A stretch of 15,494 nt of DNA from a virus, in the IMG/VR virus record IMGVR_UViG_3300049448_000440; one strand, 5' to 3'. The position numbers and the translations under genes are program-made. The notes under the pieces are model-generated. The model did no database searches. It worked only from the letters and a program-made list of their open reading frames with translations, and had not been told where the DNA came from. How positions within the stretch are numbered: position 1 is the first letter of the stretch; each line of letters begins with the position of its first letter. Of this stretch, positions 1 through 15,494 are shown in pieces.

Positions 1-579
1 CATCAGCTCCTGCAGGCGGGCGCCGAGGATGGTCTTGCGGGCGCTGGTCAGGATCCCCTCGTGCGGGCCCGGGATCAGCAGCACGGTCTCGGAGTCGACC
101 TCGTCGTTGCCGTCGATCAGGACCGACCCGTCGCTGTCGAAGCTCCACAGTTCGGCGGGGACCCGCTCGACGCGCAGGATCCGTTTGCGGGCGTCGCGCT
201 CGCACGCCCACAGCGACCAGCCGCCGAACAGCAGGTCGTCGATGGTCCACGCCATCCGGTGCCAGGGCGACATCGTGCCGTCGGTGCGGGTAATCCACAG
301 CGGCTGCGGGTCGACGGCCTGGTCGACCGCGACGGCGCGCAGCGGCAGCCGGGCGATGGTGCCGACCAGCAGGTGCCGGGCCCGGGCGACCGCGGGGACC
401 TGCATGGCGGCCGCGCGGGTCAGCGGCCAGTTCTCGGCGTCGGCGCCGAACAGGTCGGCCCATACGATCCGGGACAGGTCACCGGTCGACCAAGGCGAGC
501 GGATCGCGGTCGGGCCACGCGGCGGCACCTGCAGCTCCTGAGCCGCCTGCACGAGCCTGAGCGCCGAACGCAACCCCAT
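1..579 (-). CDS. Portal protein, N-terminal part (continues across the circle junction into 14897-15367; about 349 aa in total)
   Basis: The minus-strand frame is open from ATG 579-577 to the window edge. Hand translation gives MGLRSALRLVQAAQELQVPPRGPTAIRSPWSTGDLSRIVWADLFGADAENWPLTRAAAMQVPAVARARHLLVGTIARLPLRAV...LLIPGPHEG. With offset 15367 this is in frame with ORF 14897..15451. The gene lies directly downstream of the large terminase. The start is uncertain because no clear RBS precedes it. Confidence 0.8.
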   Translation of the reverse strand, partial: MGLRSALRLVQAAQELQVPPRGPTAIRSPWSTGDLSRIVWADLFGADAENWPLTRAAAMQVPAVARARHLLVGTIARLPLRAVAVDQAVDPQPLWITRTDGTMSPWHRMAWTIDDLLFGGWSLWACERDARKRILRVERVPAELWSFDSDGSVLIDGNDEVDSETVLLIPGPHEGILTSARKTILGARLQELM

Positions 580-2289: not shown

Positions 2290-2531
2290 CAGGGCTTGAT
2301 ACCTGCCACGACACGGGCGCGGGCCTGGCGCCGGCGCTGGCCCAGCGCCTGACCCGCGCTCATGTTGCAGCGGGCGTGTGCCACGCCCAGGTTGGAGCGG
2401 CCGTTGCCGCCACCCACCACCCGCTCAACGAGGTGGTCCACGTGCCACACCATCTCGGAGGTGACGGTGCGACCGCAGCGTGAGCAGGGCAGGGGGAGCA
2501 GGGCGGCGAAGTACGCGCGCTCACGCGTCAC
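2286..2531 (-). CDS. HNH endonuclease
   Basis: The translation contains CSRCGRTV...WHVDHLVERVVGGGNGRSNLGVAHARCN, which gives the CxxC, H-N-H and HxxC elements. The chosen start is GTG 2531 with GGAG 10 nt upstream. In-frame alternative starts are GTG 2558 and GTG 2567. The long N-terminal extension of ORF 2286..2873 overlaps the upstream gene and was discarded. Confidence 0.8.
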   Translation of the reverse strand: MTRERAYFAALLPLPCSRCGRTVTSEMVWHVDHLVERVVGGGNGRSNLGVAHARCNMSAGQALGQRRRQARARVVAGIKPW

Positions 2532-2826
2532 CCGGCGGCCACTCCACCCCTTCGCCACGCCATCCACGATAGGTCTGGTCCCGCTCGATCTTGAGCCTTG
2601 ACGCCTGCAGCGACGCGGCCAGGTCGAGCAGCGCGGCGCGAGTGGTGCTGAGGACGGCGTGGATCTCGTGCGGGTCGCCCCGCTCGTGGGCCATCTCGGC
2701 GAGCGGGTACGTGAACGCATGGCCGGCGCCGTTGGCCAGGACGACGACGGCCAGGAGCGGCGGGTTCGACTGGTCCATCCACTGCTCGAGCGCGCGGAAC
2801 TCGCGCTCGATCCGCTCACGATCCAT
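2521..2826 (-). CDS. Hypothetical protein (101 aa)
   Basis: ATG 2826 gives MDRERIEREFRALEQWMDQ..., in frame with ORF 2521..2913. It overlaps the upstream gene's end by 11 nt. No recognisable motif was seen. Confidence 0.55.
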   Translation of the reverse strand: MDRERIEREFRALEQWMDQSNPPLLAVVVLANGAGHAFTYPLAEMAHERGDPHEIHAVLSTTRAALLDLAASLQASRLKIERDQTYRGWRGEGVEWPPGDA

Positions 2827-3493
2827 GGCTGGCTCGCAGCTGGCGGGACTCGGCGCGGCGGCACAGCGGGCACAGCGCCTGACCGTCTGGCAAGCGGCTG
2901 ACGACCTGGCCATGACGGCAGGTCGCGCGCACGCGTTCTTTTCCCTCTAGGTAGATAGGCCCCGGCGATATCGCCGGGGCTAGGCCCGGCACTTTCGCCG
3001 GGGACCCCCCGGCACTTTCGCCGGGGCTAGGCCCGGCAGATTCGCCGGGGTCAGCCCCGGCACTTTCGCCGGGGTTCATGCCAGCCCCGGCACTTTCGCC
3101 GGGGTCAGCCCCGGCGATATCGCCGGGGCTGCCTTGGCTATCTGGCCAGGTCACCTGCTGGTTTGGGTCTAGGTCGTCGTACAGCACGTACTCGTTCCAT
3201 CCGCGCCGTCCTGCTGGCCCGTTCTTCTCTGCCACCTGGAGGTAGCCACGTGCGATCAGCTCACGCTGAGCGTCGCGCCGGGCCTTGTCGCTGCTGCCGC
3301 CCATCGCCTTGTTGATGTCCGCGGCCGACCGCATCAATTGACCAGCATCGTTCGCGAGCCGGGACAACGCGGCGTAAAGCCGGAATGCACGGTCGCTGAG
3401 CTCGGGGTCTTCGATCAGGTGATTGCTGACGATGGTGAATCGGCTGTTCCGCCGGCGGACCTTGACGCGCCTGGCCTCGGCGGCCGTGGTCAC
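2816..3493 (-). CDS. Replication-initiator-like DNA-binding protein: N-terminal winged-helix/HTH, repeat-encoded linker, Cys/His C-terminal tail
   Basis: The N-terminus RFTIVSNHLIEDPELSDRAFRLYAALSRLAND resembles phage and plasmid replisome-organiser wHTH domains. The central region is a PGESAG repeat region. The C-terminus reads CRHGQVVSRLPDGQALCPLC. The start was taken as GTG 3493, which forms a GTGA overlap with the upstream stop. TTG 3502 is an alternative start. Confidence 0.6.
   Translation of the reverse strand: MTTAAEARRVKVRRRNSRFTIVSNHLIEDPELSDRAFRLYAALSRLANDAGQLMRSAADINKAMGGSSDKARRDAQRELIARGYLQVAEKNGPAGRRGWNEYVLYDDLDPNQQVTWPDSQGSPGDIAGADPGESAGAGMNPGESAGADPGESAGPSPGESAGGSPAKVPGLAPAISPGPIYLEGKERVRATCRHGQVVSRLPDGQALCPLCRRAESRQLRASHGS
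2960..3128. repeat. Array of seven 19-20 bp dyad-symmetric repeats CCCCGGC-N6-GCCGGGG (candidate iterons / origin)
   Basis: Copies lie at 2960-2979, 2985-3003, 3007-3026, 3032-3050, 3055-3074, 3085-3104 and 3109-3128. The two outer copies are the perfect palindrome CCCCGGCGATATCGCCGGGG. The inner copies have ACTTTC (x4) or AGATTC (x1) cores. Confidence 0.9.
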
Positions 3494-3702
3494 GACGCCC
3501 AACTCTCGATCAGCGCGTGCACCTCGGCGCGGTCGTAGCGGGGGCGTCGGCCTGGCGTCAGGTAGCGCCGGACCTTGCCCTCGCGGGCGTAGCGGTCGAG
3601 CGTGCTCGGGGTAACACGCAGGATCGCCGCGGCTTCTGTCCGGGTGATCCAGTCAGGTTCCGATGTGAGAGGTACTTTCGCTCTGTGTGCATCTGTGCTC
3701 AT
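3490..3702 (-). CDS. Small HTH DNA-binding protein (excisionase/MerR-like HTH_17 fold); Cro-like by position
   Basis: This 70-aa protein contains WITRTEAAAILRVTPSTLDRYAREGKV...YDRAEVHALI. It is divergent from the XRE repressor gene and is the first gene of the long minus-strand unit. Confidence 0.7.
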   Translation of the reverse strand: MSTDAHRAKVPLTSEPDWITRTEAAAILRVTPSTLDRYAREGKVRRYLTPGRRPRYDRAEVHALIESWAS

Positions 3703-3789
3703 GCTTGGTGACCGTATTCAAGCCTGAAGACTTGCGCAAGTATGCGTGGGTCTGCGTGTCGCTGCGCGTACATGCGTTAGGGTGGTGGC
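3703..3789. promoter_or_regulatory. Divergent switch region with candidate promoters and operators
   Basis: A 12-bp perfect palindrome ACTTGCGCAAGT lies at 3730-3741. TGCG(C/T) occurs at 3733, 3743, 3753, 3763 and 3773, an exact 10-bp phasing. The minus-strand candidate promoter is TTGCGC (3739-3734), a 17-nt spacer and TACGGT (3716-3711), 8 nt before ATG 3702. The plus-strand candidate -10 is TAGGGT (3778-3783), 6 nt before ATG 3790. Both genes therefore look leaderless or nearly so. Confidence 0.5.
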
Positions 3790-4104
3790 ATGACTTCAGT
3801 GGCGAAGCAGGACCCCATTGATGCCGTGATCGGCGAGCGGCTGCACACGTGGATGTGGCGCAACAGGATCAGCCAGGTCGACCTGGCTGCGCGTCTCGGG
3901 ATCAGCGGGCCCTCGATCGGGCGCAAGCTGCGCGGCGAGTCGGCCTGGTCGGCCGGTGAGCTGGCGCGCGCGGCCGCGACGCTGGGCGTGCCGGTGGGCT
4001 GGTTCTTCGGCGAGGCCGATGATGTGCGCCCGAAGGGATTCGAACCCCTAACCTTCTGGTTAGGAGTCTGTGAGCACGTCGACGACCTGGCGCTGGTCGC
4101 ATGA
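3790..4104 (+). CDS. XRE-family HTH repressor (cI-like), viral-form C-terminus ...DDLALVA
   Basis: This 104-aa protein contains IGERLHTWMWRNRISQVDLAARLGISGPSIGRKLRGESAWSAGELARAAATLGVPVGWFF, a classic HTH_3 pattern. It is divergent from the Cro-like gene and is the first gene of the operon ending in int. Confidence 0.8.
   Translation: MTSVAKQDPIDAVIGERLHTWMWRNRISQVDLAARLGISGPSIGRKLRGESAWSAGELARAAATLGVPVGWFFGEADDVRPKGFEPLTFWLGVCEHVDDLALVA
4025..4066 (-). other. 3' half of a tRNA-Arg(CCT) (positions 32-73); candidate attP common core
   Basis: The minus strand reads CTCCTAA CCAGA AGGTT AGGGG TTCGAAT CCCTT CGGGCGC A. These are the anticodon loop (U33, CCU, A37), 3' anticodon stem, variable loop, T arm, acceptor 3' strand and discriminator. 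No matching 5' anticodon stem, D arm or acceptor 5' strand lies upstream, so it is a fragment and not a gene. Confidence 0.7.
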
Positions 4105-4640
4105 GCGCGGATCTCGGTGACGAAAACCGGCACTGCGTCGAGTGCGGCCGCTACGTCGGCGCCCTCGAGGTAGCCAAGTACCTCAACGACGACACGGTCG
4201 AGGACCAGGTCGACGTGATCTGTAACGCCTGCTACGGCGCCGTGCTTGCCAGAGCTGGCGCTGGCGGCATGACGCTCGAGTGGGGACCGTCCTCGAGTGA
4301 CCTGGTCGACGTGGCTGCCGAGCTGAGGGCCTGGGCGGCCGGCTGGCTCCCTCAGATGGCGGCGGTGGAGTTCGTTCTCGGCGTCTATCCGAACCTGAGT
4401 CCGAACAGCTCGATGGTCAGAGAGCACGCCGAGGACGAGGGCGGCGGCTGGTACCTGGACCTCTACTGCGATGAGGAGATCTGGGAGGCCCGCACGGCCT
4501 ACATGTCTGGCGGCGAGCGGGCCACCTGGTGGCTCGCTCGGTCGCTCGCGAGGGGTGAGCTGGCCGAGCACTTCAGCCGACTGGACGCGCACCGGCGGCT
4601 CGCGTTCAGCATGGCGCTCGAGGTCTGGAACCTCGGGTGA
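4101..4640 (+). CDS. Hypothetical protein with N-terminal CxxC...CxxC zinc-ribbon-like motif (179 aa)
   Basis: Its ATG forms an ATGA overlap with the repressor stop. The N-terminus contains CVECGRYV...CNAC, and the C-terminal region is Trp-rich. No function was recognised. Confidence 0.6.
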   Translation: MSADLGDENRHCVECGRYVGALEVAKYLNDDTVEDQVDVICNACYGAVLARAGAGGMTLEWGPSSSDLVDVAAELRAWAAGWLPQMAAVEFVLGVYPNLSPNSSMVREHAEDEGGGWYLDLYCDEEIWEARTAYMSGGERATWWLARSLARGELAEHFSRLDAHRRLAFSMALEVWNLG

Positions 4641-4939
4641 GCGACCGCGGGCACATCACGTGGCCGGCGCTGCTCGATGCCGGGCTGACGCATGTGGACG
4701 TGCTGAACCGCGGTGTGCACGACGCGTCGGAGTGGGTGGTGCGCTCGCCGTCCGGGAACGCACTGGTGCGGATCCACCTGAACAGCCTCGAGTCGTGGTC
4801 CGTGGAGTGCTTCGTGCCGGCGGTCCATCACCCGGGCGCGTCGTCGAGCACGCTGGAGTGGCAGCTCGAGGACACGCGGACCTACCTCGGCGGACAGGTG
4901 ACACAGATGCTCGACGACGTCGCGGCGATCGTCGGCTGA
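4637..4939 (+). CDS. Hypothetical protein (100 aa)
   Basis: A GTG start forms a GTGA overlap with the upstream stop, and its own stop overlaps the int ATG (TGATG). No motif was recognised. Confidence 0.55.
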   Translation: MSDRGHITWPALLDAGLTHVDVLNRGVHDASEWVVRSPSGNALVRIHLNSLESWSVECFVPAVHHPGASSSTLEWQLEDTRTYLGGQVTQMLDDVAAIVG

Positions 4940-5796
4940 TGACGCTTGTGAGCATGACGATGACCGAGCCCACGCCGGCGTGGGACACAGAGATCGAAGC
5001 GTGGCTGATGACGCTGCGCGGCGCCGGACGGCGCCCAGCGACCGTCAAGGCCAGGCGGCAGCAGCTGCGGCTGCTCGCGCGGTGGGCTCGCGAGCGCGGG
5101 CCGTGGACGCTGAGCACCGACGACCTGCTCAGCTGGTGCGCGTCGCGCGACTGGTCGCGCGAGCGGCGCCGCTCCGTCCGCTCCGCGCTGCGCACGTTCT
5201 ACACGTGGGGTGTGCGCACCCACCGCATCCAGGACAACCCGGCGACCGACCTGCCGGCGGTGCGCGCGGCCGAGCCGCGGCCGAAGCCGTGTCCCGATCG
5301 CGTGCTGGCGGCCGCGGTCGCGGCCGCGCCGGCGCGTGACGTGCTGATGCTGAGGTTGGCGGCCGAGTGTGGGCTGCGCCGCGCCGAGGTCGCCCAGGTC
5401 CACACCCGCGACGTGTTCCCGGACCTGCTGGGCTGGTCCCTGCTGGTGCACGGCAAGGGCGGCAAGGAACGCGTCGTCGCCCTCGAGGACGACCTGGCCC
5501 GGGCGCTGCTCGCGCGGCCGCGCGGGTACGTGTTCCCGGGGAAGATCGACGGCCACCTGTCCGCGCGGTGGGTCGGCAAGGTCGTCCTGCGCTGGCTCGA
5601 TCAGGGCTACACGCTGCACAGCCTGCGGCACTGGTTCGCCACCACGACCTACCACGAGCAGAACGACCTGCTGGCGGTCCAGCAGGCCCTGGGACACGCC
5701 AGCCCGGAGACCACCCGGCGCTACATCAAGCTGCAGGACGACCGGGTGCGGGCGCTGGTGACGACGGCCTCAGCGCGGCTGCGGGCGATCGCGTGA
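4939..5796 (+). CDS. int: Tyrosine integrase (short XerC/D-like, 285 aa)
   Basis: Catalytic-type motifs are present: LRLAAECGLRRAEV (Arg), KGGKERVV (Lys), HSLRHWFAT (HxxR) and LGHASPETTRRYI (His...Tyr). The 441-aa ORF 4471..5796 was trimmed to the ATG at 4939, which overlaps the upstream stop. In-frame ATGs at 4954 and 4960 are alternatives. Confidence 0.9.
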   Translation: MTLVSMTMTEPTPAWDTEIEAWLMTLRGAGRRPATVKARRQQLRLLARWARERGPWTLSTDDLLSWCASRDWSRERRRSVRSALRTFYTWGVRTHRIQDNPATDLPAVRAAEPRPKPCPDRVLAAAVAAAPARDVLMLRLAAECGLRRAEVAQVHTRDVFPDLLGWSLLVHGKGGKERVVALEDDLARALLARPRGYVFPGKIDGHLSARWVGKVVLRWLDQGYTLHSLRHWFATTTYHEQNDLLAVQQALGHASPETTRRYIKLQDDRVRALVTTASARLRAIA

Positions 5797-5918
5797 AACA
5801 AAGTTCCAGAGTTTCAGGGGGTCGGCGAGGGATCTGGCACCTACAAGCCCATATGACCGCAACAGGCCACAGATCTAGAGATTAGGAGTTTGCGGGCACG
5901 AACGGCACCAAAGGGGGG

Positions 5919-5986
5919 AAGGGCCACGCCTTGCCCCCTATGAACGAGGGGGCAGAGGGCAGTGGCCCTTCCGGGATCGAACCGAA
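5919..5986. other. Nested 52-nt hairpin (5919-5970) abutting a tRNA T-arm-like motif on the minus strand (5962-5986)
   Basis: The outer 9-bp stem is AAGGGCCAC (5919-5927) / GTGGCCCTT (5962-5970). The inner 7-bp stem is GCCCCCT (5933-5939) / AGGGGGC (5947-5953) with the 7-nt loop ATGAACG. The minus strand of 5986-5962 reads TTCGG TTCGATC CCGGA AGGGCCA C, which looks like a T arm plus an acceptor-like strand. Confidence 0.5.
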
Positions 5987-6017
5987 CCGATGCAGATACC
6001 ACGATGGAGGATCACAG

Positions 6018-6452
6018 ATGCTTTCGCAGAGCGGCGCGCCGCTGTTGACGGTCCGGCAGTTCGCCCAGCGGCACGGGGTGGCGGTGCGCACGGTGGAGCG
6101 GTGGCAGGAGGACGGCCACCTGTCCGGGGTGGTGCGGCTGGACTCGGGGAACCTGATCCCGGACCAGCCGCGCCCGGCGATCGGACGGCGCGCGGCCGCG
6201 GCGCCCGAACCGCTCGAGCAGCGGGCGCTGGCGGTGCCGGCGCCGGCGGCGCTGGAGCAGGGCCCGCGCAACCTGGCCGAGGCCCTGGCGCTGCTGCCGG
6301 CGTTCCTGACGCTGGAGGACGCGGCGCGGCTGCTCGGGATCCCGGTGGTGCGGATCAAGGAGAATCCCGAGCGGTTCGCGGCGGAACCGGTCGACGACCG
6401 CCGGCAGCTGATGGTGCCCGCGCGGGTCGTGCGCGAGGTCGCCGGCATCTGA
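6018..6452 (+). CDS. DNA-binding protein with two HTH_17/excisionase-like modules (144 aa)
   Basis: GGAGGA (6006-6011) lies 6 nt before ATG 6018. The first module is LLTVRQFAQRHGVAVRTVERWQEDGHL. The second is FLTLEDAARLLGIPVVRIKENPERF...MVPARVVREV. An Ala/Pro-rich linker separates them. The TTG-5931 extension was rejected in favour of the RBS-supported ATG. Confidence 0.7.
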   Translation: MLSQSGAPLLTVRQFAQRHGVAVRTVERWQEDGHLSGVVRLDSGNLIPDQPRPAIGRRAAAAPEPLEQRALAVPAPAALEQGPRNLAEALALLPAFLTLEDAARLLGIPVVRIKENPERFAAEPVDDRRQLMVPARVVREVAGI

Positions 6453-6515
6453 GGTCCGACACCGCCGACATGTCGGACCGACACGGCCCGGGGTCCGACA
6501 TGTCGGTGCTGTCGG
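6453..6515. terminator. Candidate bidirectional terminator / protein-binding cluster between convergent genes
   Basis: A perfect 15-bp inverted repeat CCGACATGTCGGACC (6465-6479) / GGTCCGACATGTCGG (6492-6506) has a 12-nt spacer. An additional GGTCCGACA lies at 6453-6461. The hexamer CCGACA/TGTCGG occurs 7 times within 63 bp. No U-tract is present. Confidence 0.45.
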
Positions 6516-6519
6516 TGGG

Positions 6520-7464
6520 CTACCAGGTGGCGATCTGGGCGTTGGCGGCGGTGACGACGGCGTCGGTGTTCGCCCATGCCTCGATCCGCAGCCAGTCGCT
6601 GGAGGTCAGGGTGCCCTGCTGGGCGACCTCGAGGCGGGCGTGGCCGGTGATGTCGATGGTGGTCTGACGCAGCGAGTAGCGGGCGTTGCTGCCGTCCTTC
6701 CACGGGCGGACCTGCACGATGGTGCCGGGCTCGCCCTGCACGTACAGCTGGGCGGACAGGTTGAACCAGCCGGCGGGGCCCTTGCGCACGGCGTACTGCC
6801 CGGTCGGGTCGCCCTCCTTGTCGGACAGCTTGAGGTCGACCCAATCCCCGCCGATGGCGCGCTCGGTGGTGCTCGACTTGGTCAGGGTGTCCACGGGTGC
6901 TCCTTCGTCGAGCGCGGGCGGGTTCAGGACCACGGCGCGCAGGTCGTCCATGTCCAGCGGGTCGGGGTCGACCTTGCGGGTCGGCGCCCATTCCTTGTGG
7001 GCGATCAGCCAGTCGAGCAGCTCGCCGGCGTTGTCGCGGACGCCGAGGTGGTCGGCCAGGGCGACCAGGCCGGTGATGCCGCCGGTGCGCTGGTCGGCAG
7101 ACCATTCCTCGTTGGTGGTGTGGTCGGTCTCGATCCCGATGAACTTGGCGTTGCCGTCGGTGACGCCATGCCAGGACCCCTCGCCGGCATGGTTCGCCCG
7201 CCCGGCGGCGCAGCAGTGCCAGCGGCCGTCGAAGTCCAGCCACAGCTGCGCGAGGGGGCCCTCGAGCCCGGGCCGGCCGTTGATGATGACGTCGGCGCCG
7301 TGGCTGGTCTCACCCGCGGGCGAGGCGTCGTGGTGGAGCATGACGCCGCGTGGGGAGAACGCGCCGGAGGGGCGGCCGCGGGTCTTCCACCCGTCCTCCT
7401 CCACGACCTCGCAGCCGGCGCCACGCAGGACGTCGGCCATCCAGACCAGCGGGAACCAGCCCAT
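6520..7464 (-). CDS. Endolysin: N-acetylmuramoyl-L-alanine amidase (Amidase_2/PGRP-like) with an uncharacterised ~130-aa C-terminal domain
   Basis: Amidase_2-like elements are present: VMLHHDAS, GRANHAGEGSWHG, FIGIETDH and IAHKEWAPTRKVDPDP. It is the last gene of the late unit, directly after the tail genes. Confidence 0.8.
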   Translation of the reverse strand: MGWFPLVWMADVLRGAGCEVVEEDGWKTRGRPSGAFSPRGVMLHHDASPAGETSHGADVIINGRPGLEGPLAQLWLDFDGRWHCCAAGRANHAGEGSWHGVTDGNAKFIGIETDHTTNEEWSADQRTGGITGLVALADHLGVRDNAGELLDWLIAHKEWAPTRKVDPDPLDMDDLRAVVLNPPALDEGAPVDTLTKSSTTERAIGGDWVDLKLSDKEGDPTGQYAVRKGPAGWFNLSAQLYVQGEPGTIVQVRPWKDGSNARYSLRQTTIDITGHARLEVAQQGTLTSSDWLRIEAWANTDAVVTAANAQIATW

Positions 7465-7466
7465 GG

Positions 7467-8036
7467 TCAGGTCCCCAGCGGGGTGACGACCATGAACGAG
7501 TTCGTGAAGCGGACCAGGTCCGCGACGGTGGCGACGGCCTGGGCGAACTGGAACTGCAGGTAGCCGCCGGTGCCGCCGACCTGGACGATCAGGTCCTCGC
7601 GGACGTGGCTGTTGTTGGTGGGGATGACGCCGAAGATTTGCGCCGAGGTGAACGTGGCGGCCGGGCGGGCGGCCATCAGCGTGGCGGCCACCGACGTCGT
7701 GGCGGTCTCGGCGCCGAGCACGAACCGGGACTGGAACGTGACGTCACCGGTGGCGCGCCATGCCTGCTGCACGTCGGCGCCGGCCGCCGAGCACGCGTAG
7801 CCGGTGACCAGCTCCACGCGGTAGAAGCCGGCCGCCCCGGAGGGGAACGTCCAGCGGAACGCGGGGTCATCGGTCATCACCGCGGAGTTGTTGACGGTGA
7901 ACGCACCGGTGGTGATGCCCTGCTTGAGACCCGGCAGCCGCGGGTCGAGGGCTTCCGCGAGGCGCTGGATGTCGCCGGGCACGTCCGGGATGTTCGCCGG
8001 GCTCGGGTAGGGCAGGCCCTTGGTGGTGGTGGGCAT
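7467..8036 (-). CDS. Minor tail protein (candidate receptor-binding/tail fibre protein, 189 aa)
   Basis: ATG 8036 is preceded by GGAGG 6 nt upstream. The N-terminal KGLPYPSPANIPDVPGDIQRLAEALD motif is common in actinophage minor tail proteins. The R/P-rich upstream extension of ORF 7467..8429 was discarded. Confidence 0.6.
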   Translation of the reverse strand: MPTTTKGLPYPSPANIPDVPGDIQRLAEALDPRLPGLKQGITTGAFTVNNSAVMTDDPAFRWTFPSGAAGFYRVELVTGYACSAAGADVQQAWRATGDVTFQSRFVLGAETATTSVAATLMAARPAATFTSAQIFGVIPTNNSHVREDLIVQVGGTGGYLQFQFAQAVATVADLVRFTNSFMVVTPLGT

Positions 8037-8038
8037 CG

Positions 8039-9187
8039 TCAGCCTCCGGTGATCGTGTCGTCGAGGGGTAGCTGGGTGCGCACGTCCATCGAGCCGGTCT
8101 CCAGGGTGAACGTGACGGCGCCGACCTGGTGGCGTTCCTGGGGGCCCAGCGGCAGCTGGATCGAAACGGTGTCCAGGGGCCTGATCCAGTAGGCGGCGAC
8201 GGCGCTGATCGTGATGGCGCGGCCCAGGGTGAACGCCGTGCGCAGGGTCGCGGCCGCGCGGTTGGCGGCCGCGGCGGCGTTGCTCTTCCACGGCAGCTCG
8301 TCGGCCGCGGTGACCTGGCCCACGACGGAGGTGGCGTAGGGGCCGGAGGTGATCTGCGCGGTCCCGATCACGGTCTGGGTCAGGCCGGCCTTGTCCCAGC
8401 GGTAGCGGACCACGGCGGCGTTGGCCCACCGGTCGCGGGTCAGCTCGGTGCTGGAGGACACGACGGTGCCGGCGGCGCCCACGTTCAGGGCGTGCACGGG
8501 CTGCCCGACCGGCGACTGCCCGGTCAGGCGCCAGACGCCGGTCTCGTCGCAGCGGAACCAGCCGCCGACCCGGGCGGCGATGTCGCGGGCGAAGTCCAGG
8601 GCCGGATCAGTGGCCGCCGGCACCCACTGTTCGGGGGCGGCGTCGGCCCACCGGGTGGAGGTCAGGGCCTGCCCGTACGCCCAGGACGGGTCGGTGATGC
8701 CGGACACGGCACCGCAGGCGATCAGGCACCGGTTCACCGCGTCCCGGGCGGTCGTGGTGTTGTCCCAGGACGCACCGGCCCAGGCGGAGTTGGACAGCGC
8801 CCGCCACCCGTCGTACAGGTACTCGGCGCCCTGTACGGACAGGGTCAGGGTGTTGCTTGGCCGGTCCACGTCGCGCCGCGCCAGGTACATCACGGCCAGC
8901 GGGTGCACGTCGACGACGGCGCCGGGCAGCACGTAGCCGGCCGAGACCACGACCTTGACCCGCCCTCGCGGGTCCAGCGCGTCCAGCTCGGCCTGGTCCT
9001 GGGGCACGGGCCCGGTCAGCACACCCTGCACGTATGGCGACCAGGAGCGGTCCAGGGTGACCGAGCAGGTGCTCACCTTCAGCGGGATCGGGTTGCCGGC
9101 GGCGTCGGTGACGGCCACAGTCCACCGGTGCTCGAGGCTGGAGCGCAGCAGCTGCTCCAGGGCGCCGCTCCAGGGCGCGGTACTCAC
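8039..9187 (-). CDS. Minor tail protein (tail tip/hub-like by position, 382 aa)
   Basis: A GTG start forms a GTGA overlap with the upstream stop. It is the second gene after the tape measure. No enzymatic motif was recognised. Confidence 0.6.
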   Translation of the reverse strand: MSTAPWSGALEQLLRSSLEHRWTVAVTDAAGNPIPLKVSTCSVTLDRSWSPYVQGVLTGPVPQDQAELDALDPRGRVKVVVSAGYVLPGAVVDVHPLAVMYLARRDVDRPSNTLTLSVQGAEYLYDGWRALSNSAWAGASWDNTTTARDAVNRCLIACGAVSGITDPSWAYGQALTSTRWADAAPEQWVPAATDPALDFARDIAARVGGWFRCDETGVWRLTGQSPVGQPVHALNVGAAGTVVSSSTELTRDRWANAAVVRYRWDKAGLTQTVIGTAQITSGPYATSVVGQVTAADELPWKSNAAAAANRAAATLRTAFTLGRAITISAVAAYWIRPLDTVSIQLPLGPQERHQVGAVTFTLETGSMDVRTQLPLDDTITGG

Positions 9188-10014
9188 CGGATCGGGGTGT
9201 TGCTGAGGAGGTCGCCGTAGGTGGCGAACGCGGCGCGGACCAGCAGATAGTCGCGGTAGCCGGCCAGCAGGTCGGCGTAGGCCCAGGCCCCGATGGGCAC
9301 CAGGATGCCCGGCGGTGACGCGACGGACGCGAAGCTGACGGAGACGTCCCAGCGCCGCTCGGGCCGAGGGCTGGTCGTCCAGTCCTCGGCGCTGTGCGCC
9401 AGGGACACGCTGGTCACCGCGAAGTAGAAGTCGAGGTTGACCTGGTCGGACTGGCGCAGCATGAAGATCGCCGGGCTGGACAGCACCCCGATCAGCTGCT
9501 GCGCGGCGGCGAGACTGGCGCAGCGGATGACCAGGGTGCCGGTCGGGTCGGCGGCCGCGCCCAGGACCACGAGCGGGTCGGTGCGCCCGACGACGGGGTG
9601 GACCGTGGAGGTGCCTTGGCTCGTCTGGTCGTACTGCACCGCGATGCTGTCGGTAGGTGCGCCGGCCGCGGACAGCAGCAGCCCTGACGCCGGGTACAGG
9701 GGCACGGTCAGATAGGCCACGCCGTGCTGGGTCAGGGGCGGCAGGGTGACCGTCGCCACGATCGCGGTGGCGGTGTACACGTAGTAGGTGATCGGCACGC
9801 CGCCGGTCTGCAGCGAGTACTCGTAGTCCGAGACATAGGTGGGGGCCGATATCGGTAGCCCTCCGTAGGCCCCGGAGGGCATTCGGACGGCGGCTGATCC
9901 GGCGGCGTCGGTGCGGATGACCTGGGTGAGGACCGGGTCGTCGGGTGGGGTGGCGTTGATGTACAGCTTGACCCGCTGCGGGGTGACGGAGACCACGGTC
10001 ACGGTGACGGCCAT
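9184..10014 (-). CDS. Minor tail protein (distal tail protein-like by position, 276 aa)
   Basis: ATG 10014-10012 shares one base with the tape measure stop (TGATG). The sequence MAVTVTVVSVTPQRVKLYINA... looks beta-rich. The 823-aa ORF 9184..11655 was trimmed because its upstream part is an out-of-frame overlap with the tape measure gene. Confidence 0.6.
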   Translation of the reverse strand: MAVTVTVVSVTPQRVKLYINATPPDDPVLTQVIRTDAAGSAAVRMPSGAYGGLPISAPTYVSDYEYSLQTGGVPITYYVYTATAIVATVTLPPLTQHGVAYLTVPLYPASGLLLSAAGAPTDSIAVQYDQTSQGTSTVHPVVGRTDPLVVLGAAADPTGTLVIRCASLAAAQQLIGVLSSPAIFMLRQSDQVNLDFYFAVTSVSLAHSAEDWTTSPRPERRWDVSVSFASVASPPGILVPIGAWAYADLLAGYRDYLLVRAAFATYGDLLSNTPIR

Positions 10015-11597
10015 CAGGTGGGCACCGGCTTCCCGAGCTTGGGCTGCGTGACTCTGGGCTCGACGTTGACCTTGTACGTGCGGCCGCTGAAGTAGTCGTC
10101 CAGCTGCTTGTTCACCCCGCGCAGGTCGGGCACGACCTTGACCGACGTCGTGCGGTCCGCGGCCGCGTCGTCGACGGCGTCCTTGGTGGTCTTGGCGGTG
10201 CCGTGGTCGGTGACGGTGATCGTGGTGTGCTTGGCCGGGGGGATCCCGCCGAGGGTGTCCACGAAGTGCTGCGCTTCCTTCCTGGTGATCCCGAATGCCT
10301 TGGACACCTTGTCCACGAGGACCTTCTCTTGGGCCTCCATCTTCTTCGTGGCGGTGGTCGAGGCGGTGCCGTTGTCGACCAGGGCGTCGCCGTAGGCGAT
10401 GATCCCCTTGCGTGCGGCGTCGACGGCGCGCAGGTTGTCGCGGCCCTTCTCGCTGAACTTGGACAGGCTCTTGCCGTTGGTGTCCTGGGCGTCGGAGACG
10501 CCTTGGATGGCGTCGAGCAGGTCGAGCTCGTTGGTGATCGCGTCGTTCTTGAGGCCGGCGGCGATCCGGGCCTGTTCGTTGTTGCCGGCCAGGGCGTCGG
10601 TGTTGCCGGTGACGGCGTCGGTGTTGTCGTCGGTGGCGTCGGTGGTCTGCGGCATAAGGCGGTTCAGCAGGTCCTGCTGGGCGCGGGCGTCGCCGTAGGC
10701 GTTGCCCTGGTCGCCCAGCGCCGCGTTCAGGACGCCTATCGCCTCGATCTGCTGGCGGGCGTGGGCCTGCTGCGCCAGCGAAGCGGACGGGTCGAGCAGC
10801 TGCCCGCGCAGGATGATCAGGTTCCCGGTGAGCAGCTGCTGCGCGTCGGCCAGCTCGCCGGCGTCGCCGGTCAGGCCGGCGAAGTAGGTCTGCAGTGAGC
10901 GGGTCGACAGCCCGGTCTGCTGCAGCAGGTCGTTGAACTCGTCGACGTTGCCGACGTCGAACGCCTTCTGCAGCTCCTTGGCGTCGGAGATGATCCCGGC
11001 CAGGGTGTCGGACTTGAACTCGGGGGTGATGTCGCTGTTGGCGCGCAGCTCCTCGAAGATCGACAGGACCCGCTGGCGGAACTCCTCGGCGGCCTCCTTG
11101 CTCTTGCCGAACAGGTTGCGGGCCAGGCCGATCCCGACGCCGATCGCGGCGGCGCCGACCAGGCCGGCCGGGCCGAGCGCGGCGACCAGGCCACCGAACG
11201 TGCCCTGGATGGCGTCGACGGCGCTGGAGGCCGAGCCGTCGAAGCTGGACACGGTCTCGGCGACGTTCTGCTTGGCTTCTGCGGAGAACTCGCGCAGGGT
11301 CGCGGACCCCTTGTCGCCGACGTCGTCGACGTCGGCCTTGACCTTGCGGCTGCTGGTCCGCCCGGCGGCCTCGACCTCGTGGAACGCGGTCTTGAACGAC
11401 TTGCTGATCTTGTCGGCGCTGGCGTCGGCGGTGGCGGCGACGTCCTTGAGGTCGCCGCCGACCTTGGCGTCGATGTCGGCGCCGGCGGTGGAGATGTCGT
11501 CGAGGCTGTCGGCGACGTCGTCGAGGCTGTCCTCGAGGTCCTTGGTCCCGGCGAGGAACTTGGTGACGTCGGCGATGAACGGGATCTTGATGGCCAC
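10014..11597 (-). CDS. Tape measure protein (527 aa)
   Basis: GTG 11597 is preceded by GGAGG 7 nt upstream. The protein is long, Ala/Asp/Leu/Gln-rich and looks helical. It has an internal hydrophobic segment GGLVAALGPAGLVGAAAIGVGIGLA. It lies between the major tail and minor tail genes. Confidence 0.85.
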   Translation of the reverse strand: MAIKIPFIADVTKFLAGTKDLEDSLDDVADSLDDISTAGADIDAKVGGDLKDVAATADASADKISKSFKTAFHEVEAAGRTSSRKVKADVDDVGDKGSATLREFSAEAKQNVAETVSSFDGSASSAVDAIQGTFGGLVAALGPAGLVGAAAIGVGIGLARNLFGKSKEAAEEFRQRVLSIFEELRANSDITPEFKSDTLAGIISDAKELQKAFDVGNVDEFNDLLQQTGLSTRSLQTYFAGLTGDAGELADAQQLLTGNLIILRGQLLDPSASLAQQAHARQQIEAIGVLNAALGDQGNAYGDARAQQDLLNRLMPQTTDATDDNTDAVTGNTDALAGNNEQARIAAGLKNDAITNELDLLDAIQGVSDAQDTNGKSLSKFSEKGRDNLRAVDAARKGIIAYGDALVDNGTASTTATKKMEAQEKVLVDKVSKAFGITRKEAQHFVDTLGGIPPAKHTTITVTDHGTAKTTKDAVDDAAADRTTSVKVVPDLRGVNKQLDDYFSGRTYKVNVEPRVTQPKLGKPVPT

Positions 11598-11600
11598 GGG

Positions 11601-12107
11601 TCAGCCTCCTTCCTCGGACGCGTCGTAGTAGACCTTCACGATCAGCTGCGTCCACAGCGACGCGGCGCGGCCGCCGAACTCGGCCAGGGCGCCCATCACG
11701 GGCCCGCTCTTGCGCGGCCGCGGAAGCTGCCGGCGGGTGTGCCGGGTGACCTGCGTCGAGCCACCCGAGCGGGTCCGACGCCGGTAGGTCGTCGTGATGT
11801 CGGGGGCACCGAACTCGACCGCGGCCGCGTCGGCGTCCGGGACCAGGCCGCCGGACAGCCGGCGACGCGAGGTGCCGGCGACGAACGCCGGCGGGTTACC
11901 GGCGGCGACGCGTGCGCCGGGCACGAGGACGCGCTGCTCGAGCGGCGTCGTGGCACGTGCGGCGATCCCGGCTTTCCAGGGCGCGTTGAGCAGGGTCCTG
12001 GTGGCGTCGTTGACGCGCTTCTTCAGGCCACGGTCGGCGAGCTTGAACGCCAGCACCGCGGCCTGCAACGACCGGTCGTCGCCGACCGAGACCACCATCG
12101 GGGTCAC
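11601..12107 (-). CDS. Structural/assembly protein of uncertain role (168 aa); N-terminus loosely HK97 gp10-like; occupies the tail-chaperone slot
   Basis: The start is GTG 12107, with ATG 12098 as an alternative. The N-terminus reads MVVSVGDDRSLQAAVLAFKLADRGLKKRVNDATRTLL. The protein is basic (RRRTRSGG, RRQLPRPRK) with an acidic tail EEGG. It lies between the major tail and tape measure genes. Confidence 0.45.
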   Translation of the reverse strand: MTPMVVSVGDDRSLQAAVLAFKLADRGLKKRVNDATRTLLNAPWKAGIAARATTPLEQRVLVPGARVAAGNPPAFVAGTSRRRLSGGLVPDADAAAVEFGAPDITTTYRRRTRSGGSTQVTRHTRRQLPRPRKSGPVMGALAEFGGRAASLWTQLIVKVYYDASEEGG

Positions 12108-12110
12108 CCG

Positions 12111-12521
12111 TCACGGCACCGCGGTGAACACCGGTTCGCCGGAGACGCCGAGGGTGACGGTCGCGACGGCGTAGGCGTTGACGGTCCCGCCGACGGCGCC
12201 GGGGGCGATGATCAGGTCGACCGCCCAGCTGCCGGCGCCGGGGTTGGTGGTGAACGTCGCGGCGATCGTCTCCCCGGCGTGGGCCTGCAGGTACTGCGAG
12301 AGGCTGTTCGGGGTCGTCCAGTCCTGCGCGTAGGACAGGGTCGCGGCCCACGAGGGGGAACTGACGTCGGAGAACGACGCGGACGGGGTGAGGCCCTGCC
12401 AGGTCAGCTGCGAGACCGAGGGGGTCAGCTCGACCTGGGAGACGTGGGCTTCGTAGTTGTCGGCGCCAACGAGAAAGGTGGCGTCCTTGAGCACGAACGG
12501 GAGGACGGCGACGGGGGCCAT
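12111..12521 (-). CDS. Major tail protein (136 aa)
   Basis: A strong RBS AAGGAG lies 8 nt before ATG 12521. The sequence PFVLKDATFLVGADNYEAHVSQVELTPSVSQLTW... is typical of small actinophage tail tube proteins. The position also fits. Confidence 0.7.
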   Translation of the reverse strand: MAPVAVLPFVLKDATFLVGADNYEAHVSQVELTPSVSQLTWQGLTPSASFSDVSSPSWAATLSYAQDWTTPNSLSQYLQAHAGETIAATFTTNPGAGSWAVDLIIAPGAVGGTVNAYAVATVTLGVSGEPVFTAVP

Positions 12522-12533
12522 GGCTGGATCTCC

Positions 12534-12899
12534 TTATGGGGTGGCGGTGGTGTAGACCTCGACCTCGAGGCTGAACGCGTTGAACGCGTCGTCGGCGACG
12601 GACTGGCGGGTGCCCTGGGTGAACGCCAGCGGCTGAGCGGCGACCAGGGCGTCGACGACCTTGAGCAGCGCCGCCTCGAGGTCGTCCTCGGCGGTCTCGC
12701 TGAGGTAGGCGGTCAGCACGTAGACGGCCAGCGTCCAGGTCAGCTGTCCCTGCGGTGGGCCCGGGACGACCGAGCGGGTGGCGATGACCAGGGTGGGGGC
12801 GGTGACGTTCGCCGGCCAGCGGCCGTCGACGATGGTGTAACCGGTCGGGGCGAGCGCGGCCGCCACGATCCCGCGGGGGCTGCTCGCGGCGGCCGCCAT
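12534..12899 (-). CDS. Head-tail joining / tail terminator-like protein (121 aa, assigned by position)
   Basis: The ATG shares one base with the upstream stop (TGATG). It lies between the connector and the major tail protein. Confidence 0.5.
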   Translation of the reverse strand: MAAAASSPRGIVAAALAPTGYTIVDGRWPANVTAPTLVIATRSVVPGPPQGQLTWTLAVYVLTAYLSETAEDDLEAALLKVVDALVAAQPLAFTQGTRQSVADDAFNAFSLEVEVYTTATP

Positions 12900-13243
12900 C
12901 AGTGCAACCTCGGCACGGCCGGCCGCGGGCGCAGCAGCGCCTTGACGGTGTTGCCCAGCGGCCGCACGCGGATGACGGTGGTGTCACTGAAACCGATGAC
13001 GTCGCCCTCGCGGCGCGACGCGGCCCACAGTTCGTCGGCCTGGTAGATCTGCGCGAGCGGCCACCCCTCCGGGATGGGGTCGCCGTCGGGCAGGGTCGGC
13101 GCGTACTCGCGGCACTGGTCGTAGGCGGCGCCGAGCAGCCGGGCAAGACTGGTCTCGCTCAGCTGCTCGGAGTCGGCCCACAGTTCCGACAACAGCGCCT
13201 TGTCGGCGTCGTCGTCGGTGTCGACCCAGCCGATCAGGGGCAC
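12899..13243 (-). CDS. Head-tail connector (gp6-like adaptor, 114 aa)
   Basis: GTG 13243 lies 4 nt after the capsid stop. The pattern VDTDDDADKALLSELWADSEQLSETSLARLLGAAYDQCREY resembles gp6-type connectors. The upstream part of ORF 12899..13384 overlaps the capsid gene out of frame and was discarded. Confidence 0.6.
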   Translation of the reverse strand: MPLIGWVDTDDDADKALLSELWADSEQLSETSLARLLGAAYDQCREYAPTLPDGDPIPEGWPLAQIYQADELWAASRREGDVIGFSDTTVIRVRPLGNTVKALLRPRPAVPRLH

Positions 13244-13247
13244 GGGG

Positions 13248-14891: not shown

Positions 14892-14896
14892 GGGTG

Positions 14897-15494
14897 TCAG
14901 TCCTCCGTGGTAGGCCCGAACGGCGCCGGCGGGACGGTGGTCAGGTAGGTGGTGTCGAACGCGCAGCGCTGCCCGCGGGGCACGACGTCGTCCATCGACA
15001 GCCGCCCGGAGACCGGGTTGGAGTAGAGGGCTGCGGCGCGGTTCAGCTCGCCCTCTGCGGTCTCGGCGGTGGAGTAGGTCAGCGACGCGGTCGACAGCGA
15101 CGCGTTGAGCGCCTGGGCGGGTAGCCCGGTGTGTGAGGCGATGTCGACGGCGACCGCGTTGCGGGCCTCGATGAGCAGGTCGGTGGTGGCGGTGCCGTGC
15201 GGTTTGAGCTCGATGTTGTAGGGGGTGAACGCGACCGCGCCGTCCGGGTCCGTACGGTTGGCGACCCACGCGTCGATGAGGGCGTCCTGCTCTTCCTCGC
15301 TGAGGGTGTCGTCGGTGGTCTGGTGGATCTCCATGGCGGGGATCGGCGCCGCGACCCGGCGTTGCCACATCAGCTCCTGCAGGCGGGCGCCGAGGATGGT
15401 CTTGCGGGCGCTGGTCAGGATCCCCTCGTGCGGGCCCGGGATCAGCAGCACGGTCTCGGAGTCGACCTCGTCGTTGCCGTCGATCAGGACCGAC
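14897..15494 (-). CDS. Portal protein, C-terminal part (15368-15494 duplicates 1-127)
   Basis: The frame is open to the window end. It contains ...LIEARNAVAVDIASHTGLPAQALNASL..., which is typical of portal clip/wing regions. The stop is at 14897-14899, inside the RBS region of the capsid fusion gene. Confidence 0.8.
   Translation of the reverse strand, partial: SVLIDGNDEVDSETVLLIPGPHEGILTSARKTILGARLQELMWQRRVAAPIPAMEIHQTTDDTLSEEEQDALIDAWVANRTDPDGAVAFTPYNIELKPHGTATTDLLIEARNAVAVDIASHTGLPAQALNASLSTASLTYSTAETAEGELNRAAALYSNPVSGRLSMDDVVPRGQRCAFDTTYLTTVPPAPFGPTTED
15368..15494. repeat. 127-bp exact copy of window bases 1-127 (circular-closure overlap)
   Basis: A base-by-base comparison shows the two segments are identical. 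Confidence 0.95.

Follow-up and report, generated by a model that had tools for sequence, protein, structure and literature searches.

The stretch of DNA analysed here, the 15,494-nt IMG/VR virus record IMGVR_UViG_3300049448_000440 (referred to below as the window), carries on its minus strand a gene whose product resembles phage replication initiators (the initiator-like gene). Inside this gene lie seven 20-bp dyad-symmetric units of the form CCCCGGC-N6-GCCGGGG, which are putative iterons, followed directly by a short tract of low GC content. Our analysis indicates that the array and the adjoining tract are probably the replication origin of the phage, placed within the linker-coding part of the gene for its own initiator. 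An earlier annotation of the same DNA, made from the letters alone (the first-pass annotation), had interpreted the locus in the manner of lambda O and its origin, and the comparison with relatives described below supports this interpretation, although it does not prove it. The gene, its parts and the units are located as follows.

2816..3493, minus strand: initiator-like gene, which starts with the GTG at 3493 and encodes 225 aa; the GC content at third codon positions (GC3) supports a coding frame over 3150-3420
3182..3445, minus strand: part coding for the N-terminal winged-helix domain (approximately residues 20-107, 228-aa numbering)
2927..3169, minus strand: part coding for the predicted disordered linker (residues 112-192), which holds the whole array and the low-GC tract
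2819..2926, minus strand: part coding for the C-terminal Cys/His tail (C195, H197, C211 and C214)
2960..3128: array of seven dyad-symmetric units, numbered from the 5′ end of the gene
3109-3128: u1
3085-3104: u2
3055-3074: u3
3031-3050: u4
3007-3026: u5
2984-3003: u6
2960-2979: u7
2934..2959: low-GC tract of 26 bp, putative DNA-unwinding element, adjoining u7 directly, towards the part coding for the C-terminus

On the coding (minus) strand, successive units start 24, 30, 24, 24, 23 and 24 bp apart, and both outer units are the perfect 20-bp palindrome CCCCGGCGATATCGCCGGGG. The first-pass annotation had given the number of copies and their spacings correctly, as well as the plus-strand cores of the inner units, which read ACTTTC in four and AGATTC in one. 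The full dyad arms that it ascribed to all copies are present in five units, whereas those at 2984 and 3031 begin with GCCCGGC, which leaves six of the seven arm pairs complementary in each. The array had also been called symmetric; the two outer palindromes agree with this description, but the spacings show no mirror symmetry, and the five cores that are asymmetric share one orientation. Translation of the array yields PGDIAG, then four copies of PGESAG and then, past the 23-bp step, PAKVPG and PAISPG, in line with the two peptide forms that had been assigned to five and two copies, respectively.

A chance origin of this array is excluded. With at most one mismatch, CCGGC-N6-GCCGG has 20 matches in the window compared with 6.9 ± 2.7 in shuffled sequences, all seven of the exact copies with an A/T core in the window fall within 2960-3128, and Tandem Repeats Finder lists the array as the strongest repeat of the window (period 24, 7.0 copies). 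A CRISPR array was rejected because the units adjoin with spacers of merely 3-10 bp, and a sequencing frameshift because both the 23-bp step and the Cys/His frame beyond it recur in homologues. The array contains neither promoter- nor terminator-like sites. DnaA-box-like sites are absent from its vicinity, and their count over the window is at chance level. A 21-nt inverted repeat (2892-2912 / 3143-3163, 76% complementary, 230 nt apart) flanks the array and the low-GC tract, and it may well be a product of chance.

The low-GC tract was measured over 2936-2959, where the GC content is 41.7% compared with 71.0% for the window, close to the approximately 42% and 70% estimated earlier. Only 0.22% of the 24-mers in the window are as low, and the tract is one of seven such low-GC segments in the window.

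The mechanically called open reading frame (ORF; 3502..2816, minus strand) extends to a TTG at 3502, while the GTG at 3493 is the start of the 225-aa protein (identical to protein P0001) and overlaps the stop codon of an upstream HTH_17 gene (GTGA). The first-pass annotation had placed the array between an N-terminal domain of winged helix-turn-helix (HTH) type and a Cys/His tail, and this position is confirmed by the AlphaFold2 model, in which the array falls in the linker of residues 112-192. In a profile search, a check which had been named at that stage, the N-terminal 110 residues matched phrog_270, annotated as 'replication initiation protein' (4.9e-13), and gave weaker matches to phrog_428 and to a family of DnaD-like loaders. 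All 12 aligned relatives match HTH_36 (PF13730; best 5.4e-17, with 28.8 bits for P0007) and also show weak matches to RP-C and DnaD_N. Since every one of these relatives matches HTH_36 and the window protein matches phrog_270, membership in HTH_36 is likely at the family level.

AlphaFold2 predicts a winged helix at residues 37-107, composed of helices 37-49, 60-66 and 72-85 and strands 88-93 and 102-107, with a predicted local distance difference test score (pLDDT) of 79-91. Residues 112-192, corresponding to the array and the low-GC tract, have a pLDDT below 50 and are predicted to be disordered, and a small C-terminal element follows beyond them. Foldseek against the PDB returned generic winged helices only (E > 0.009), and its weak structural matches include Rep_3-type winged-helix initiators. 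Against the viral models of BFVD, 61 matches at E ≤ 0.001 were obtained, mostly to unnamed HTH proteins, and two of them are replication protein O entries with the lambda-O-N-domain (E 1e-4 to 3e-4). A sequence search of the PDB with the protein gave nothing meaningful. Relatives of the N-domain of family members also occur in cultured phages, where their annotations read replication protein, DnaD-like loader or RepA-like initiator. Combined, the sequence matches and the predicted model assign the N-terminal domain to the winged helices found in phage replication initiators. In the tail, C195, H197, C211 and C214 are invariant in the homologue alignment, and the identical C-x-H...C-x2-C layout is found in P0005, P0007, P0008 and P0016. 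The database similarities of this segment are limited to weak ones with Zn_ribbon_8 and RING-like domains; judged from its conserved residues, the tail is probably a small zinc ribbon.

Relatives for comparison were drawn from protein collections and their short metagenomic contigs. At the DNA level, six independent arrays were compared, namely those of the window (locus L006) and of the following five loci, with proteins that are 30-55% identical.

L001 (55% protein identity): seven units in the same place, spacings 24/29/24/25/23/24; 23-bp step at 1035-1077
L003 (45% protein identity): seven units in the same place, spacings 24/30/24/24/23/24; 23-bp step at 2112-2154
L005 (approximately 30% identity): five units of G6-N11/12-C6, spacings 27/24/23/27; 23-bp step at 2079-2124
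L007 (approximately 30% identity): five units of GGGGCTCA-N4-TGAGCCCC, spacings 25/24/23/25; 23-bp step at 10360-10402
L008 (approximately 30% identity): five units of CCCGGCAC-N2-GTGCCGGG, spacings 25/24/23/25; 23-bp step at 1595-1637

All six arrays follow one plan, consisting of a winged helix, 5-7 dyad units, a 26-nt low-GC tract and the putative zinc-ribbon tail. The tract after the array has 35-50% GC in loci of 67-73% GC, and in the 7-unit subfamily its sequence is kept (CCTATCTACCTAGA-GGAGAA). The distance from the first to the last unit is 149 bp in the window, L001 and L003 alike. Furthermore, in both the 7-unit and the 5-unit subfamilies the step between the third-last and second-last units is 23 bp (2984-3026 in the window), and therefore the reading frame shifts at this position in all six. 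This shared step suggests that the presumed nucleoprotein complex has a fixed geometry. On L007, a 16.7-kb contig, the genes are ordered as in the window, and no further replication gene can be recognised. It had been suggested earlier to check whether relatives keep the DNA repeat despite drift of the peptide; unit number, spacing, dyads and low-GC tract are indeed retained.

The arms themselves have diverged in a coordinated manner. The half-sites are CGGC-N6-GCCG in the window and GGCC-N6-GGCC in L003, and among the 49 arm pairs compared between these two arrays, 20 have changed on both sides yet are still complementary, 19 are unchanged and 10 are otherwise altered. Units within one array are 0.88, 0.78 and 0.71 identical, compared with 0.54 between matching units of the window and L003, and thus the units of one array have evolved in concert. 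The putative recognition helix differs alongside the half-site (...RRDAQRELIARG in the window, ...RRRAQTELVKLG in P0003 and ...RKRAQNELVSAG in P0008), an anecdotal observation to which we attach little weight.

In a recoding test, the peptide of the window was kept fixed while synonymous codons were resampled according to the codon usage of the phage itself (20,000 resamples). The native sequence contains 11 dyads with 5-bp arms and a 6-nt spacer, compared with a mean of 1.05 in the recodings, none of which reached 11. Rare codons account for 11 of the 57 codons in the array (AGT at 1.3%, ATA at 0%, TCT, CTA and GCT), and the A/T-rich core is thus retained against codon bias. The units of the window lie in frames 0,0,0,0,0,2,2 and those of L001 in frames 0,0,2,2,0,2,2, so that units 3 and 4 of L001 encode PAKSPP and PAEMPG versus PGESAG in the window. 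Whereas the DNA architecture is conserved among homologues, the linker peptide is not. Since relatives keep the architecture, arm changes are compensatory, the frames of the units differ and recodings never yield the dyads, these comparisons place selection at the level of the DNA.

Such in-gene arrays may not be confined to the close relatives. The profile search yielded 416 matches. Among the best 150 profile matches, 94 of 143 short proteins show recurring peptide words just past the winged helix, which hints that in-gene origin arrays are common yet unannotated in the HTH_36-type group. Five distant HTH_36-type proteins with other C-terminal domains (P0019, P0022, P0027, P0077 and P0108) have at least three recurring peptide words after the winged helix, examples of such words in distant relatives being GGRTDAA, GRNSA and ATSDT. 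This suggests that in-gene site arrays could be widespread in the group.

The window is a complete circular contig with 15,367 unique bases, and it represents the whole genome of a very small temperate siphophage. This follows from 127 nt that are identical at both ends (1-127 = 15368-15494, an exact direct overlap), from a portal gene crossing the end junction (a related portal aligns to 477..19 and 15487..14897) and from matches of the remaining ORFs to a capsid-protease fusion, a major tail protein, a tail protein and an endolysin (PHROGs, Pfam). The same capsid, tail and endolysin matches, terminal overlap and junction-spanning portal rule out that 5886-15494 is host DNA beside a prophage. 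The capsid is approximately 40% identical to capsids of 15-16-kb Arthrobacter phages. Judging from the 71% GC and the capsid relatives in Arthrobacter and Gordonia phages, the host is presumably a high-GC actinobacterium. Genes near the initiator-like gene are listed below.

4471-5796, plus strand: tyrosine integrase
3790-4104, plus strand: cI-like repressor
3490..3702, minus strand: HTH_17 / excisionase-like DNA-binding protein (Pfam HTH_17 at 1e-08), upstream of the initiator-like gene and translationally coupled to it
2521..2826, minus strand: 101-aa ORF (ORF101) with a strong GC3 signal, overlapping the initiator-like gene downstream
2531-2286, minus strand: HNH endonuclease
2289-2098, minus strand: 63-aa ORF (ORF63)
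2083-638, minus strand: large terminase

Searches of Pfam, PHROGs and NCBIfam revealed no helicase, primase, polymerase or helicase loader among the genes of the whole 15.4-kb genome, and the initiator-like gene is its sole replication-type gene. ORF101 has no family match in the same three collections. A small ORF overlapping the stop codon of the initiator gene is seen in most related loci, and ORF101 is a possible partner of the initiator. The HTH_17 gene precedes the initiator gene in L001-L004, L006, L007 and L009, and the genome encodes three further HTH proteins. One of the other products, a 188-aa protein encoded at 5886-6452 on the plus strand, has Cox-like/MerR-like HTH matches (phrog_22141 and phrog_575) and could, instead of the HTH_17 protein of 3490-3702, be the true excisionase or directionality factor. 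Low-GC segments at 5791-5894 lie directly after the integrase gene and are the probable site of attP. Three of the seven lowest-GC segments of the window lie at 2090-2193, in the interval that separates the HNH/ORF63 genes from the large terminase gene; given where the genome of the Arthrobacter phage BlueFeather ends, this is probably the cos region.

BlueFeather (L010, MT024867.1) also has a gene in an equivalent position. Its gp21 (14404-15069), annotated merely as 'helix-turn-helix DNA binding domain protein', follows a small HTH gene and precedes an HNH gene. The build of gp21 is alike, with an N-terminal HTH, four copies of TAGCC(A/G)GAATCCGGCTA at 14761, 14778, 14826 and 14871, and a Cys/His tail. 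Homology of gp21 to the window protein is not demonstrable, with an hhalign probability of 1.3% and an HTH_36 match at E = 0.007.

The analysis shows the anatomy of the locus, how this anatomy is conserved and co-varies among relatives, the fold class to which the protein belongs and that the genome has no further replication gene; which protein binds the array, the melting, the recruitment of host factors and the function as an origin are inferred. Dimers of the N-terminal winged helix would bind each palindromic unit, and seven sites at a fixed 23-24-bp step would give rise to an ordered nucleoprotein complex. This complex would then strain and open the AT-richer tract at 2934-2959. Because the phage encodes neither, host helicase and primase would be recruited, either by the Cys/His tail or by the small downstream ORF (ORF101). 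The linker peptide would need only to tolerate whatever the DNA sites encode, which would explain why the units can occupy different reading frames. In such an arrangement, the arms and the spacing would be set by DNA recognition, while the uncontacted core would merely have to be A/T-rich and would be chosen to encode an innocuous hydrophilic linker.

Several observations weigh against the array and tract being an origin. At 26 bp and 42-46% GC, the tract is short and modest for an unwinding element. The HTH_36 score of the window protein itself is 18.9 bits (E 0.0013), under the Pfam cut-off of 25. The family is rare and known from metagenomic contigs only: no relative was found in GTDB genomes, IMG/VR, PLSDB or GenBank phages, and a search of JGI metagenomes found none either. 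The cumulative GC skew of the window is monotonic and thus uninformative on the position of an origin. Gene conversion can homogenise tandem repeats that have no function, and dyad symmetry with compensatory change suits hairpins as well as sites for dimer binding. Finally, the peptide is not entirely free. Unit 4 (3031-3050) has the coding-strand core GAATCT instead of GAAAGT, and both encode Glu-Ser through an AGT/TCT serine switch; where L001 and L003 have units in the -1 frame, the core has moved by one base to AGAATC, and GAA once more encodes Glu. These codon patterns indicate some peptide-level constraint on the core. The earlier claim that selection acts on the DNA and not on the peptide is therefore upheld in its first half by the relatives and the recoding test, but is slightly too strong in its second.

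Four other explanations were weighed against an origin. The array could bind protein without any role in replication, serving autoregulation or a transcriptional roadblock by the initiator-like protein, or acting as an operator array for another DNA-binding protein of the phage (HTH_17/excisionase-like, cI-like or Cox-like). The HTH_17 protein is a possible alternative binder, as its gene lies immediately upstream, with coupled translation, in nearly all related loci; three more HTH proteins are encoded in the genome, and a regulatory role has also been proposed for the RepAM sites inside repAM (PMC2440964). However, the array always accompanies the winged-helix domain and changes in sequence with it, L005 and L008 have the array yet no HTH_17 gene upstream, and the early promoter region (3703-3789) contains no related site. 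In addition, a geometry resembling that of iterons and a low-GC tract that invariably adjoins the array are features of origins. We therefore consider a purely non-replicative binding array unlikely, while regulation and origin function of the same array are compatible with each other. A packaging site (cos/pac) bound by a terminase component would be in keeping with the repeat arrays of some packaging sites and with the lack of a small terminase subunit recognisable in this genome by Pfam and PHROGs. Yet the related BlueFeather genome ends after its HNH gene, just before the terminase, which corresponds to 2090-2290 of the window, where other low-GC segments lie; the array is approximately 900 bp away, inside a replication-type gene. 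Such a site is the least credible of the four explanations, and we give it hardly any weight.

Formation of hairpins in single-stranded nucleic acid has to be considered as well, either as an mRNA fold that delays translation or makes the early transcript more stable, or as a rolling-circle hairpin origin like the one proposed for RepAM. Single units fold at -14 to -17 kcal/mol and the whole array at -150 kcal/mol (z = -9.7), the arm changes are compensatory, three L003 units have T opposite G, which would be a U-G wobble on the sense strand, and the RepAM binding region forms a hairpin (PMC2440964). Nevertheless, four of the seven L001 units keep just 4-5 pairs (-5.9 and -8.1 kcal/mol) and one L003 unit fails to fold (-2 kcal/mol), while spacing and inner half-sites are kept despite these poorly folding units. 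The fixed 23/24-bp step is a feature of duplex geometry. Moreover, Rfam gave no match above threshold (only sub-threshold hairpin noise) and no terminator-like site is present, no pC194-type CTTGAT occurs in 2900-3200 (the nearest is at 2295-2300), and Pfam detects no HUH or rolling-circle Rep signature in the protein. Hairpins are accordingly an improbable explanation, even more so than a non-replicative binding array. The last alternative is a coding tandem repeat only, that is, a flexible Pro/Gly/Ser/Glu-rich linker grown by 24-bp duplication with no function at the DNA level. The predicted disorder of the segment and the Glu-Ser dipeptide retained through differing codons and frames agree with this, but the peptide is unconserved, relatives read units in other frames, rare codons ending in A or T recur, and unit number and spacing are conserved at 45% protein identity. 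Since the peptide cannot account for the dyad symmetry either (0/20,000 recodings), this explanation is strongly disfavoured and seems highly improbable.

If the array and tract are indeed the origin, the finding provides an origin assignment at the sequence level for very small temperate actinobacterial phages for which no replication mechanism has been described. No annotation of the gene calls it an initiator; it is left unnamed, listed as a 'hypothetical protein' or, in one relative, given as a MocR-family regulator. The loci would also be compact candidate replicons (one gene, approximately 0.7 kb) with naturally diversified specificities for plasmids and vectors in high-GC Actinobacteria. 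They offer a clean natural case in which an array of DNA sites would dictate the sequence of a protein linker, with frames that differ between lineages, and a caution for annotators, as such repeats may pass for low-complexity coding sequence or frameshift errors. The understanding of how origins work is unchanged by the finding. A more far-reaching version, which we regard as conceivable though rather doubtful, is a complete one-gene replicon of less than 700 bp, in which the host helicase or primase is recruited directly via the ~35-aa zinc-ribbon tail without a phage loader. Here, the invariant 24/23-bp geometry and the co-diversified half-sites and recognition helices would provide the smallest temperate actinobacterial phages with mutually orthogonal mini-replicons, possibly including the cultured 15-16-kb Arthrobacter phages, where the equivalent gene is annotated just as 'HTH DNA binding protein'.

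An origin inside its own initiator gene is already known in kind, and by analogy the present element would be a further member of this group. The origin of lambda lies inside gene O and consists of four 18-bp iterons and a 38-bp AT-rich tract (PMC3349717). As in the window, it is situated between the parts coding for the N-terminal DNA-binding and the C-terminal domains, with the iteron region encoding the linker; dyad-type iterons and an AT-rich tract on the downstream side are likewise present in both. In contrast to lambda, the window has seven (in relatives, also five) 20-bp units at a 23-24-bp step and a tract of 26 bp, the C-terminal part is a ~35-aa putative zinc-ribbon tail, the phage genome has no gene for a P-like helicase loader, and the presumed host is a high-GC actinobacterium. 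Neither the window protein nor the 12 relatives match Phage_rep_O (PF04492) at E ≤ 0.1, and the likeness is thus at the level of the predicted fold only.

A similar layout has been reported for the plasmid pSK41, whose rep gene carries in its central part four Rep boxes to which Rep itself binds; the central domain encoded by this origin is a linker, dispensable in trans, and DnaG is bound by the C-terminal domain (PMC5703833). In pPR9, a PF13730-type domain of phage origin has taken the place of the N-terminal domain, and the replication origin was exchanged along with it as one module (PMC5703833). The window protein resembles pSK41 Rep in its predicted N-terminal winged helix, its centrally placed sites and a linker encoded by the putative origin (here predicted to be disordered), and pPR9 Rep in an N-terminal domain that is probably of the PF13730 (HTH_36) type. 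However, the RepA_N systems belong to Firmicute plasmids and have a DnaD-like C-terminal domain of approximately 120 aa instead of a tiny putative zinc ribbon. RepAM of pMEA300, an actinomycete integrative element, binds several identical 8-bp repeats within the sequence that encodes it, and the repeat region can form a strong hairpin (PMC2440964); the protein is defined by DUF3631 (PF12307) (PMC3218068). Here, the likeness lies in multiple repeats within the initiator gene of an actinobacterial mobile element, while the RepAM repeats are 8 bp long, lie at the 3′ end of the gene and are associated with a pC194-like nick motif and a proposed rolling-circle mode. Since RepA_N (PF06970) and DUF3631 (PF12307) have no match in the window protein or the 12 relatives, membership in either group was rejected. 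In iteron plasmids of the Rep_3 type (F RepE, R6K pi and RK2 TrfA), the iterons are direct, non-palindromic, bound by monomers and located outside the rep gene. They share with the window a spaced array of initiator sites beside an AT-rich unwinding element, but the units here are palindromic and lie within the gene, and Rep_3 (PF01051) has no match in the window protein or the 12 relatives. Compared with all these systems, the present element stands out by its minimal putative zinc-ribbon C-terminus, by 5-7 palindromic units that keep a 23-bp step, by the lack of a loader gene and by its place in the smallest temperate actinobacterial phages.

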